Source: Alphaproteobacteria bacterium
GTDB lineage: Bacteria; Pseudomonadota; Alphaproteobacteria; MPNO01; UBA830
Reading direction: 5' to 3'
Assembly: GCA_965243135.1 (NCBI GenBank)
Contig: OZ251539.1
Span: forward strand, 1,760,001-1,824,000
Length of the DNA: 64,000 bases
Shown here: piece by piece, positions 62 through 14,503 of the stretch
How the letters are laid out: each line of letters begins with the position of its first letter
Numbering within the stretch: position 1 is the stretch's first letter
Position numbers and translations under genes: made by a program
Notes under the pieces: generated by a model
The model's database searches: none
The model's input: only the letters and a program-made list of their open reading frames with translations
What the model was told of the DNA's origin: nothing

Positions 62-512
62 TGGCGCAGGCTCCTTCGGCAGTCGCTCTCCGCCCGGCCG
101 TCGGCAAGGGTCGCGAAAGTGGATTCCGCTCGAATCTGCGGCAATCGAGGCGAACTAGAGGCGCGCCGAATCGCCAGTCCGAATGCCGTTCAAGCTGCCG
201 GGTTCGAACATGTCGACCAGGCTCACTTCAGTTCGATGTTCGACGCGTGTTTCGCTCGCACGAAACGCGGCTTGCCGTCGAGGAAACAAAATACGCCGCT
301 TCGTCGATCCCGCTGCTCGACAACGGTCTTTTCTCGAAGGCCTGTGAAGGCCTTTATCGAAGTGGGACGAACGACATTTCTGCCGGTTTTCGGGTTGATC
401 TTTTCCGGCGAATCGAATATCGTGAAGAGCGTCGTCGCTCATCAGTGGCGGCCCCTCGCCTGTATTGCGAGGATCGCGCTGCAGCTGCTAACGTTTCAGG
501 GTTGAGCGGAGG

Positions 513-1364
513 ATGACGAAAATGATTGGAGAAAATCCAATCCGTTTCGGAGGAGAATGGACGGAGAGAAAACTTGATATTCTACAGCGTTATCTGGATG
601 CATATACGACCGTTATGACAAATCAGCGCTTCCGCCTGATGTACATCGATGCGTTTGCCGGCGAGGGCCAGATTGGTATACGTGAAGATGACGATGGCGT
701 CCGTTTCCTGCGCGGTTCGTCCGAAAGAGCGCTGAGTATCGGAAATAGACCGTTTGACCGGCTCGTCTTTGTCGAGAAGGATCGGGGAAGATGCGAAGAA
801 CTCGAACTTCTCCGCGAACAACATCTTGAAAGGGACGTGAGGATAGAAAATGCGGATGCAAACGATTTTTTACGCAATCTTCAAGAAGACTGGAGGAACT
901 GGCGCGGGGTTCTTTTCCTCGATCCGTTCGCCGCTCAAGTCAAATGGTCCACGATAAAGACTATAGCGGCCTTCAACGCGCTCGATACGTGGCTTCTTTT
1001 TCCGGTGTCCGCGATCGCGAGAATTCTTCCGAGGACACGCAGGCCGGAGGACGTTTCAAGGGAATGGGAGGCACGTCTGAATCTCGTTTATGGAGACGAG
1101 AGTTGGAAAGACCTTTACAGAGTGCGGAGGCAGGGGAATCTCTTCGGAGAACGTGAATACGAAAGAAATCCTGGCGTTGACGGGTTGATGGAAATTTACA
1201 AGAAAAATCTGCGTAATTTGTTTGGGGAAAGATTTTCAAATAGATCGGCAACATTCACGAGTTCCAGAAATTCCCCGCTGTTCGAATTTCTTTTTTGCGT
1301 CGGACATCCGAGCGGAGTTAAAATTGCAACCAAGATAGCGAAGCATATCCTTGATCACGAATGA
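513..1364 (+). CDS. tcmP: Three-Cys-motif partner protein TcmP (SAM-dependent methyltransferase-like fold)
   Basis: FGGEWTERKLDILQRYL, YIDAFAGEG (SAM-binding motif I), FVEKD, LFLDPF; adjacent to a DUF5131 gene. ATG 522 is better spaced from GGAGG (508-512) than ATG 513. Confidence 0.85.
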   Translation: MTKMIGENPIRFGGEWTERKLDILQRYLDAYTTVMTNQRFRLMYIDAFAGEGQIGIREDDDGVRFLRGSSERALSIGNRPFDRLVFVEKDRGRCEELELLREQHLERDVRIENADANDFLRNLQEDWRNWRGVLFLDPFAAQVKWSTIKTIAAFNALDTWLLFPVSAIARILPRTRRPEDVSREWEARLNLVYGDESWKDLYRVRRQGNLFGEREYERNPGVDGLMEIYKKNLRNLFGERFSNRSATFTSSRNSPLFEFLFCVGHPSGVKIATKIAKHILDHE

Positions 1365-2101
1365 GCAATCCGCAAGCGTTTCGGATCGGGGAATTCGTCC
1401 CAGGTTCTGCCGTCCAGCTTTCTCCCGCCCGACTTGGCGCGCGCGCCGCCCCACTGCTTGAAGAAGAACGCGGTTTCGCGGCCGCTGCATTGGTCGCGCA
1501 GCTCTCGCGCCCATTCGGGTTCCATCGGCCGCGCTCCCGGACCGCTTTCGCCTCCGACGATCGCCCAGGCGATGCCGTCGAGGTCGATGGGACAGACAGG
1601 GCCGAGCAGGGGCTCGAACGAAACGAACCGGACTGCCGCCGGCGTTCGTTTCAAATGCTCCAGCCGTCCGGCGCGCTCGCGGTTCTCGATCGATACTCCG
1701 AGCCATATATGGCCCGGCGCTCCGGCTTCGCCGTAGCGCCGACGGATATAGCCGCGCATGCGGGACGAACGCTTGGTCAATACCTGATAGACATGTCGCG
1801 ATGTCCGCTCCATGGCTTCGAACACCTGGTCCACGAACGCCTCCGGCACCCGCTTGTGGAAAAGGTCGCTCATCGAGTTGACGAATATCCGCTTCGGCTT
1901 GCGCCAGCGTTCCGGCGCGGCGAGCCGCGCCGGCCATAGCCTCAGATCGAAACCCTGCTGATACGGATGGCCTGCGACGCCGCGCCAGCGCTCGGCGAAT
2001 CGGGCCGCGTAGCAATTGTCGCAGCCGGGGCCGATCTTCGTGCACCCCGTCACGGGATTCCACGTCGCGTCGGTCCATTCGATTTGCGTCGCTTGCGCCA
2101 T
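1355..2101 (-). CDS. DUF5131 / phage Gp37-Gp68 family radical-SAM-like protein
   Basis: IEWTDATWNPVTGCTKIGPGCDNCYA (C-x6-C-x2-C), IFVNSMSDLFH, QVLTKR, SFEPLLG, IVGGESG, FFFKQWGG; start at ATG 2101. Confidence 0.92.
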   Translation of the reverse strand: MAQATQIEWTDATWNPVTGCTKIGPGCDNCYAARFAERWRGVAGHPYQQGFDLRLWPARLAAPERWRKPKRIFVNSMSDLFHKRVPEAFVDQVFEAMERTSRHVYQVLTKRSSRMRGYIRRRYGEAGAPGHIWLGVSIENRERAGRLEHLKRTPAAVRFVSFEPLLGPVCPIDLDGIAWAIVGGESGPGARPMEPEWARELRDQCSGRETAFFFKQWGGARAKSGGRKLDGRTWDEFPDPKRLRIAHS

Positions 2102-2111
2102 TTCGACGTTC

Positions 2112-2126
2112 GTTCTAGGCTTGTTC
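2112..2126 (-). promoter_or_regulatory. Alphaproteobacterial LexA (SOS) box
   Basis: GTTC-TAGGCTT-GTTC on + (GAAC-N7-GAAC on -), 10 nt upstream of the DUF5131 ATG. Confidence 0.7.
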
Positions 2127-2140
2127 TCTTTCGGCGTCAA
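2112..2140 (-). promoter_or_regulatory. Sigma70-type promoter of the DUF5131 gene
   Basis: Minus strand TTGACG (2140-2135), 17 nt, TAGAAC (2117-2112); no Shine-Dalgarno, predicted TSS only a few nt before the ATG. Confidence 0.6.
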
Positions 2141-2365
2141 CGGTATTTTATCGCCGCCTCGCCCTGACTCAACGTGCGAGCGCGTCCATACTTCCTCGAA
2201 CTTCGTCAGTCCCTGTCGCATCCACCTTCTTGGTTTGGAAGCGTTCTAAACAGGGTACATGGACCGGACATATCATCTGTTACTGACAGCGGCTCCGCCG
2301 GCGTCTGGCGGCGGTCACGACGGGCTGTTAGGCTTCAGGCGCCGCCATAACGAAAGGGCGCTTCA

Positions 2366-13579: not shown

Positions 13580-14503
13580 TCAACCCGTCCGCGCCGGGAA
13601 AAGACCCTGCGGCTTGAAGAACAGTATGGTCGCCATGAGTATGTAAACGAGCATCGAAGCCAGAGCCGGGCCGGCCGTCTGCGCCGCTTCGGCCGATACG
13701 ACTTGAAGCATGACGAAGGGGAGGATGGAACGGCCGACCGTTTCGAAGATGCCGACGATTATCGACGCCACGAGAGCGCCGCGAATCGAACCGATGCCGC
13801 CGATGACGATGACCACGAAAGCGAAGATCAGCATTTCTTCGCCCATGCCGCTCTCCACGGAGAGCAACGGAGCCGCCATCAAACCGGCAAGTCCGGCGAA
13901 GACGGCGCCGAGACCGAAGACCAGGGTATAGAGAAACCGGATGTTGACGCCCAGGGCACCCACCATCGGCCGGTTGCTTGCGCCCGCCCGGATGAGCATT
14001 CCGACGCGGGTCCGCGTGATCACCCAGTACAGCGCGACCGCGACGGCGATCCCGACGCCGATAACGATCAACCGGTAAACCGGATAGGGCGCGCCCGCGA
14101 TGATCTCGACGTTGCCCGAAAGCCAGTCCGGCAGCGTCAGCGGCTGCGCGTCCACGCCCCAGACGAGCCGCACCAATTCGTTGAAGAACAGGATCAGGCC
14201 GAAAGTGGCCAGGACCTGGTCCATGTGGTCGCGTTCGTACATCGTTCGCAGCACGACGAACTCGACGATCATTCCGATGACGAGCAGCACCGGCACCATC
14301 AACACGAGGGACAAAAGCAGGCTTCCGCTCCAGGTGAAAAACGTCGACGCAAAATAGGCGCCGAGCATGTAGAGCGAGCCGTGCGCCAGATTGACGACGT
14401 TCATGATGCCGAGGACCAGAGTCAGGCCGGCCGATATCAGAAAAAGAAAAACGCCGAACTGGATCCCGTTCAGGAACTGCTCGACGAACAGCAACCAGGT
14501 CAT
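13580..14503 (-). CDS. livH: Liv-type ABC permease (LivH-like)
   Basis: GLTLVLGIMNVVNLAHG, VIGGIGSIRG, KPQGLF. Confidence 0.92.
   Translation of the reverse strand: MTWLLFVEQFLNGIQFGVFLFLISAGLTLVLGIMNVVNLAHGSLYMLGAYFASTFFTWSGSLLLSLVLMVPVLLVIGMIVEFVVLRTMYERDHMDQVLATFGLILFFNELVRLVWGVDAQPLTLPDWLSGNVEIIAGAPYPVYRLIVIGVGIAVAVALYWVITRTRVGMLIRAGASNRPMVGALGVNIRFLYTLVFGLGAVFAGLAGLMAAPLLSVESGMGEEMLIFAFVVIVIGGIGSIRGALVASIIVGIFETVGRSILPFVMLQVVSAEAAQTAGPALASMLVYILMATILFFKPQGLFPARTG

Follow-up and report, generated by a model that had tools for sequence, protein, structure and literature searches.

The gene pair encoding a DUF5131 (Gp37/Gp68) protein and a TcmP protein is common yet functionally unassigned. 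It is already catalogued, by the families TIGR04474 and PF07505 and by the entries PDC-M41 and PDC-M30 of PADLOC, where it figures among the defence candidates with no trigger named. A set of 145 PDC systems was predicted by embedding (Payne et al., 10.1101/2024.01.29.577857), and the available part of that work presents its candidates as predicted, not tested. Word searches of the literature, with most subscription papers outside the search, yielded no report of LexA control, fold or clamp motif for the pair. Only passing mentions were found, of DUF5131 in a RadicalSAM.org table and of TcmP in two Sinorhizobium tables; PDC-M30 and Gp37Gp68 appeared only as listings, and a description of a 'GMT' system by the Aravind group did not turn up in these searches. 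The copy of the pair studied here is located near the left end of a stretch of 64,000 nucleotides, in the following called the window, of an alphaproteobacterial genome (assembly GCA_965243135.1, contig OZ251539.1, forward strand positions 1,760,001 to 1,824,000). A preliminary description of this DNA had proposed an undescribed system under control of the SOS response. The word undescribed was too strong, as both genes match PDC-M41 and PDC-M30, and the locus is a LexA-boxed copy of a known pair, real and well supported, not a newly found system.

The DUF5131 gene is located on the reverse strand (1355–2101, ATG at 2101–2099) and encodes 248 amino acids which match PF07505 with 329.2 bits (cut-off 28.9, E 2e-98). 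The tcmP gene on the forward strand (522–1364) encodes a short form of 280 amino acids without the C-terminal winged-helix tail and matches TIGR04474 with 168 bits (cut-off 53, E 3.9e-49). The two genes converge and their stops overlap by 10 nucleotides (1355–1364), in agreement with the coordinates and families given in the preliminary description. In PADLOC, TcmP matched PDC-M41A (E 3.2e-73) and DUF5131 matched PDC-M41B (E 2.1e-100), and the pair also matched PDC-M30. Both open reading frames are intact with every invariant residue present. The reading frame of tcmP could open at 513, the ATG at 522 being likelier because the Shine-Dalgarno-like GGAGGA (507–512, forward strand) lies 9 nucleotides upstream of 522 but touches the ATG at 513. 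For DUF5131 a start further upstream, at 2221, was discarded, as the family begins at the methionine at 2101 and the extension crosses a dispersed repeat. The usual arrangement of the pair is a tandem of DUF5131 followed by tcmP, found in 62 of 80 named loci; four were convergent, two reversed, one divergent, and eleven had no tcmP.

Ten nucleotides before the DUF5131 ATG stands a predicted LexA box, GAAC-AAGCCTA-GAAC (2112–2126, reverse strand), an exact instance of GAAC-N7-GAAC. GTTC-N7-GTTC is the LexA motif of the Alphaproteobacteria according to the available part of PMC8565304. The box overlaps a candidate promoter with TTGACG (2140–2135) and TAGAAC (2117–2112) separated by 17 nucleotides (2112–2140, reverse strand), the layout being that of lexA promoters of the class. 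The single lexA gene of the host has TTGACA-17-TAGAAC with GAAC-CAAACTA-GAAC over the -10 element, which is identical in layout to the DUF5131 promoter, and the recA promoter contains GAAC-N7-GTAC. The eight best matches of the host LexA in the plasmid collection were all alphaproteobacterial, and of 30 lexA promoters retrieved from members of the class 28 contained the N7 repeat. The host has the N7 direct repeat of the Alphaproteobacteria as its operator; its lexA and recA promoters and its LexA matches place it inside the clade with this motif, and a host outside that clade was what the preliminary description had named as speaking against its proposal. Scored with a matrix derived from 46 boxes found in other genomes, the site reached 19.3 bits and ranked seventh among 56 genomic sites above 13 bits (lexA 28.1, recA 16.1). 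Across the 6.10-Mb genome there are 313 exact instances of the motif, about one per 19 kb, N7 being the rarest among spacings 3–12. Two of them are in the window, the DUF5131 box and GTTC-N7-GTTC at 14233, and a scan for the exact motif found none upstream of tcmP. At this frequency chance would seldom place a site so close to one particular start, yet this is no proof.

The reading of the promoter in the preliminary description, with the -10 element inside the box and no Shine-Dalgarno sequence, agrees with the sequence. The -10 element TAGAAC is without the final T, and a scan with the sigma-70 consensus, which found two sites against 0.9 expected, did not call TTGACG-17-TAGAAC; it called a second promoter-like site, TTGAGT-16-TAAAAT (2145–2172, reverse strand), with its -35 element inside the dispersed repeat. 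The 10 nucleotides between box and ATG contain no GGAG or GAGG, and from either candidate promoter the ATG is without a Shine-Dalgarno sequence. Due to the second site and the uncalled -10 element the start site and a leaderless mRNA remain candidates only. Of the 27 loci with a close box only six had a strict leaderless layout, with the -10 element right after the box and the ATG 4–8 nucleotides on, and the GAAC orientation is the rarer one among these close boxes (3/27). Words resembling a Shine-Dalgarno sequence were present in 7 of the 27 loci with a close box as compared to 35 of 76 without a box. Taken from sequence, repression of the DUF5131 promoter by LexA is very probable.

Conservation of the box was examined in an even sample of 401 genomes of the class, of which 65 had PF07505. 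Fifty-eight near-full-length loci were analysed after exclusion of the host genome itself, of fragments, and of six divergent PF07505 matches. Enrichment of the box upstream of alphaproteobacterial DUF5131, the test suggested in the preliminary description, was found: 17 of 41 cassettes with an adjacent tcmP had the exact box within 200 nucleotides of the first gene, compared to a mean of 0.32 in shuffled sequences (maximum 2 in 100 shuffles), 0–2 for spacings 3–12 except 7, and 1/37 downstream. Among DUF5131 genes without such a partner only one of 17 had the box, and in this locus a tcmP gene is found at a distance of 1.7 kb. In cassettes starting with tcmP the box stood before tcmP in three of eight cases, so that it precedes whichever gene comes first. 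The 17 boxed loci come from 15 families, and on a DUF5131 tree of 40 rows the box label has to change 11 times (8 at the least), which argues that the boxed loci are not one clade; relatives among them are nevertheless not independent. In a set of 48 named loci from Alphaproteobacteria, assigned to the class from record titles, 20 had the exact box within 120 nucleotides, and a degenerate box was found in five of the 28 others. The divergent PF07505 matches kept out of these counts (L167–L172, E about 1e-40) occur in small genomes, with no tcmP within 2 kb and a weak GP88 match in the one scanned.

Boxes were also seen among 26 named loci from outside the class. In Solirubrobacterales GAAC-N4-GTTC was found in 5/5 named loci and also in each of three lexA promoters inspected from this group. 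A CTG-N10-CAG box stood before the pair in one gammaproteobacterium and resembles that of its own lexA, and in a myxobacterium a stretch of 9 nucleotides is common to the cassette and the own lexA promoter. In Gemmatimonas (L187, L070) the lexA promoter has GAAC-N7-GAAC as in Alphaproteobacteria and the DUF5131 promoter matches it. A LexA-like gene stands directly before the pair in two further loci (L236, L220) and on a Comamonas plasmid. TIGR04474 was present in 39/301 and 43/300 genomes of two other groups. Rv2734 and Rv2735c of Mycobacterium tuberculosis are presumably a DUF5131/TcmP pair. In the available parts of the respective papers, Rv2735c is co-transcribed with recA (PMC3062782), mitomycin C raises Rv2734 3.7-fold and Rv2735c 6.2-fold (PMC5057432), and Rv2735c is called hypothetical (PMC9846648).

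A structural model of DUF5131 (predicted local distance difference test, pLDDT, 91) had spore photoproduct lyase as its best fold match (Foldseek E 8.5e-5). In a wide fold search the lyase structure 4fhc ranked first (Z 12.9, root mean square deviation 3.0, 196 residues aligned), and the top 21 rows, with Z from 8.7 to 12.9, were all radical S-adenosylmethionine (SAM) enzymes with a partial TIM barrel. A weak match to TIGR04471 was also seen. The cluster motif C20-x6-C27-x2-C30, followed by an invariant tyrosine 31 (2012–2044, reverse strand), is the C-x6-C-x2-C pointed out in the preliminary description and has a spacing of 6 in 141/141 sequences, which is non-canonical for radical SAM enzymes. 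Cysteines 20, 27, and 30, tyrosine 31, serine 76, and aspartate 79 are invariant in these 141 sequences; cysteine 205 is present in 139 and is located elsewhere than the place of lyase cysteine 140. A gap-free motif alignment puts serine 76 (1874–1876, reverse strand, invariant in 141/141) at the apparent position of this cysteine, as a match of motifs and not of superposed structures, with the lyase motif taken from primers in the available part of PMC3467042. In the same part of that paper lyase cysteine 140 donates the closing hydrogen and its mutation to serine leaves an adduct. The window DUF5131 matched only PF07505 and not the lyase family PF20903, a profile comparison with one PF20903 member gave a probability of 0.2%, and searches of the PDB with the single sequence and with the DUF5131 profile gave no match. 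From fold and invariant residues DUF5131 very probably performs radical SAM chemistry.

The model of TcmP (pLDDT 89) has a class I SAM-binding fold which is closest to RlmJ (Foldseek E 2.1e-8; Z 15.6–15.7). The profile match of TcmP to RlmJ has an E of 0.0046, and the Atlas value of 0.81–0.83 is a lead only. Motif I for SAM binding, D43-x-F45-x-G47 (648–662, forward strand; D in 142, F in 135, and G in 148 of 148 sequences), aligned to RlmJ motif I, and motif IV, D134-P-F (921–929, forward strand; D in 148/148), aligned to RlmJ D164-P165. Aspartate 164 is catalytic in RlmJ according to the available part of PMC3814359. Lysine 17 is present in 147 of 148 TcmP sequences, followed by histidine in 71 (K18-H19 in RlmJ), and may be equivalent to RlmJ lysine 18. 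No Pfam family matched TcmP, the RlmJ family PF04378 included. Motifs of the type QxxLF are the consensus for binding to the sliding clamp. The window TcmP contains a clamp-like QGNLF (Q204–F208; 1131–1145, forward strand) in the least confident inner loop of the model (pLDDT 70–75 for residues 201–220), and QxxLF was found in 57 of 161 TcmP proteins as compared to 11.6 in shuffled sequences, 1 of 177 DUF5131 proteins, and 44 of 1419 host proteins. A long C-terminal tail is present in 97 of the 161 and was PF22560, a winged helix, in the one congener protein tested. One TcmP row in the pooled counts comes from a genome marked unpublished (G448). The suggestion of the preliminary description that the two are nucleic-acid enzymes was borne out in part, in that both folds fit nucleic-acid chemistry.

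Another finding was that the two partners differ in their variability and base composition. The guanine plus cytosine (GC) content is 48.6% for tcmP in the window (GC3 0.50), 65.2% for DUF5131, and 65.0% for the host genome, and TcmP lies below its partner in 136 of 148 pairs. Median identity was 53% for DUF5131 and 20% for TcmP; in 144 comparisons where the DUF5131 proteins were at least 80% alike, half had TcmP proteins less than 25% alike. Judged by these identities, TcmP is exchanged between close DUF5131s. DUF5131 was found in 181 phage and 440 plasmid records, and a single query with the window TcmP found at least five phage records. Five DUF5131 phage regions included two with a converging methyltransferase-type partner and three without, one of these having a DNA methylase 1.1 kb on. 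In the Gordonia phage Angelique the pair stands behind the immunity repressor, and on pSymA it adjoins hna; in Sinorhizobium meliloti 1021 the genes next to hna are DUF5131 and two tcmP genes. In Angelique and BaxterFox, another Gordonia phage (L282/L287), the 'methyltransferase'/TcmP match overlaps the end of the repressor gene and is located between repressor and integrase. Seven loci (L054, L058, L060, L067, L068, L083, L298) have one DUF5131 and two unlike tcmP genes; three of them have a HipA-like gene upstream and four an unannotated gene of about 330 amino acids downstream.

The host genome contains a second, frameshifted DUF5131 copy (C1:87596–92448) which is 93% identical over 822 nucleotides and has the same promoter and left flank. 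It retains the last 19 or so nucleotides of tcmP and carries the best-scoring LexA box of the genome, with both half-sites kept and two spacer letters changed. The slot of tcmP is occupied by an HNH nuclease and by a methylase of the N4/N6 type which is extended at its N terminus. A third DUF5131 (C1:590089–590922) is located in a Mu-like prophage without tcmP or box; its C-terminal part is 81% and its N-terminal part 44% identical to the window protein. This difference suggests recombination between the prophage and the cassette copies of DUF5131.

The explanation we prefer, tentatively and at somewhat less than an even chance, is a mobile, DNA-damage-induced two-enzyme module which modifies a DNA base and is used in genetic conflict. 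In its first and best founded step LexA would repress DUF5131 via the box, and LexA cleavage triggered by RecA would free the gene; in the window copy tcmP would have its own, apparently LexA-free promoter, most relatives seeming to share one boxed operon. TcmP would then dock on the sliding clamp by QxxLF, bind SAM, and, in the manner of RlmJ, act on a flipped base by methylating or presenting its exocyclic amine. DUF5131 would cleave SAM at a [4Fe-4S] cluster held by its three cysteines and abstract a hydrogen either from the base or from the methyl group just added. If a serine replaces the hydrogen-donating cysteine of the lyase, as the motif alignment suggests, a new covalent product would be a likelier outcome of the radical than a restored base. 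The role is the weakest step: the exchangeable TcmP may set the target, and the mark may shield the DNA of the carrier when SOS mobilises it or damage replicating foreign DNA. The lyase-like and RlmJ-like folds, QxxLF, and the winged-helix tail make DNA the probable substrate. A role in conflict is suggested by the patchy spread (65/401), the low GC content of TcmP, partner swapping, the phage and hna context, the listing as PADLOC candidate, and the methylase and HNH nuclease in the tcmP slot of the second copy. The proposal in its full form, that a clamp-docked exchangeable amino-methyltransferase and a lyase-like radical SAM enzyme in sequence place a new covalent modification on a base of replicating DNA after damage only, and have repeatedly come under the LexA operator of each host as a widespread SOS function so far unrecognised, is possible but doubtful.

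A number of results weigh against this explanation. Twenty-four of the 41 paired cassettes are without an exact box, with lexA present in 36/38 of those genomes, and the exact box is likewise absent in S. meliloti 1021 and in three cultured plasmid copies. Even samples from other phyla were weak, with boxes in 2 of 18 loci from the phylum of the Solirubrobacterales (taken from 28 loci, ten of which had no DUF5131 close enough) and in 2 of 21 from the gammaproteobacterial class (0.10 in shuffles for each), and the N7 motif was never among the boxes of these two samples. DUF5131 is without TcmP in 17 of the 58 class loci and in most of the 181 phage records. Viperin comes next to the lyase in the fold search of DUF5131 (Z 11.0, root mean square deviation 3.4, 185 aligned), and Trm1 nearly ties RlmJ in that of TcmP (Z 15.5). 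The profile sets lysine 17 of TcmP about one helical turn from RlmJ lysine 18, TcmP has DP[YF]G and not DPPY, and QxxLF is present in only about a third of the TcmP proteins (QL[SD]LF in 2/161). PADLOC matched 15 of 111 neighbours; eight of these are plausibly defence genes, found within two genes in 7 of 29 loci, a count without background control.

The alternative that survives best is repair or tolerance of lesions in the SOS response, with DUF5131 reversing or processing a cross-linked or adducted base and TcmP, whether or not it also transfers a methyl group, loading DUF5131 at gaps bound by the clamp. We consider it possible though unlikely, a role in conflict being held slightly the likelier of the two. 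The best fold match to spore photoproduct lyase speaks for repair, as do the LexA boxes (17/41), the QxxLF motif, and, provided that Rv2734 and Rv2735c are such a pair, their rise with mitomycin C and the co-transcription of Rv2735c with recA. DUF5131 and the lyase are both included in megacluster 5 of RadicalSAM.org (PMC9477430), and SplB/COG1533 is a known SOS gene in the available part of PMC8565304. The cassette, however, is patchy, low in GC content, often broken, and swapped in its partner, unlike core repair genes, and the N-terminal domain of the lyase is unmatched while its hydrogen-donor position is apparently a serine.

An RNA or a free nucleotide as the substrate, with a damage-induced pair which makes a modified nucleotide in the manner of viperin or modifies tRNA or rRNA, is improbable. 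The second rank of viperin would fit it, and the closest folds of TcmP (RlmJ, Trm1, METTL16) are RNA enzymes, RlmJ being inactive on single-stranded DNA in the available part of PMC3814359; the clamp-like motif and the winged-helix tail, however, point to DNA, and a strong turnover of the partner would be unusual for a housekeeping modification of RNA. Equally improbable is a box which is real but incidental, either in a constitutive or element-controlled defence pair where control by LexA does no more than keep the cost of DUF5131 down in certain hosts, or in a rearranged window pair that no longer cooperates: the many unboxed cassettes and the unboxed tcmP of the window favour it, as do the pairing of the nearest relative of the window TcmP (59%) with a DUF5131 only 54% alike, TcmP proteins only 15–35% alike beside the nearest relatives of the window DUF5131 (68–70%), and the loss of tcmP and decay of the second copy, but boxes which differ in type, orientation, and position are found again and again over the tree and in different phyla, and both window reading frames are intact with all invariant residues.

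Right of the DUF5131 gene lies a copy of a dispersed repeat of about 140 nucleotides (2151–2289, 31 matches in the genome) which forms the right edge of a 3.9-kb island holding the cassette. An inverted partial copy (C1:1758353–1758426, 1.6 kb left of the window) lies at the other edge, and between the two are further multi-copy elements (C1:1758611–1759915) including a reading frame of 190 amino acids with glutamine-rich tandem repeats. Many copies of the repeat adjoin a multi-copy gene family which resembles an AAA-ATPase. No clean empty site was detected: the adjacent thiamine pyrophosphate (TPP)-enzyme gene has other upstream genes in three of four congeners and was unmatched in the fourth. 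A reading frame of 95 amino acids at 155–442 did not match protein family profiles, and a start-less degenerate frame left of tcmP (155–450, reverse strand) is also found at 87.6–87.9 kb of the host genome. DNA contigs from four sequencing runs cover the stretch in part; a deletion of 24 nucleotides at position 328 of the window was seen in three runs, and no Rfam family was found within positions 1–2500. Outside the pair and shadow frames no neighbour family was found in more than 7 of 109 loci, so that there is no conserved third gene. Of 222 neighbours, 109 were compared with Pfam and 111 with PADLOC, and the matches were a mixture of housekeeping, toxin-antitoxin, restriction, and mobility genes.

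While the window locus is one more copy of a catalogued pair, the regulatory link, the folds, and the clamp-like motif make a long-open family testable. The LexA boxes point to a condition of induction, the folds suggest SAM cleavage and modified nucleosides, and QxxLF suggests the place of action. If true, the SOS response would gain a radical reaction that modifies DNA, and damage signalling would be linked to conflict with mobile DNA.

When compared to the described systems, the window pair has the same adjacent gene families as PDC-M41 (A, TcmP; B, DUF5131) and PDC-M30, which are tandem, whereas the window pair is convergent. DUF5131 is like the lyase SplB in its fold, in a motif of three cysteines followed by a tyrosine, and in a damage-linked regulation. 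SplB has CX3CX2C where DUF5131 has CX6CX2C, and DUF5131 is about 90 residues shorter with 12–13% identity, does not match the N-terminal domain of the lyase (aligned range 71–341), and, unlike SplB, has a serine at the apparent hydrogen-donor site and a partner with a methyltransferase fold. TcmP has RlmJ, the m6A2030 methyltransferase of 23S rRNA, as its best fold and profile match, with motif I and the catalytic aspartate aligned. It differs in the low identity of 12–16%, in DP[YF]G for DPPY, and in having no counterpart of the RlmJ insert after motif I, and unlike RlmJ it is mobile, variable, and often equipped with a winged-helix tail and a clamp-like motif. The SOS operon COG4277–COG1573 of a radical SAM protein and a uracil-DNA glycosylase, as described in the available part of PMC8565304, likewise has two genes, regulation by LexA, and a putative function in DNA processing; its partner is a glycosylase, whereas the pair described here belongs to different families and has a partner with a SAM-binding transferase fold.

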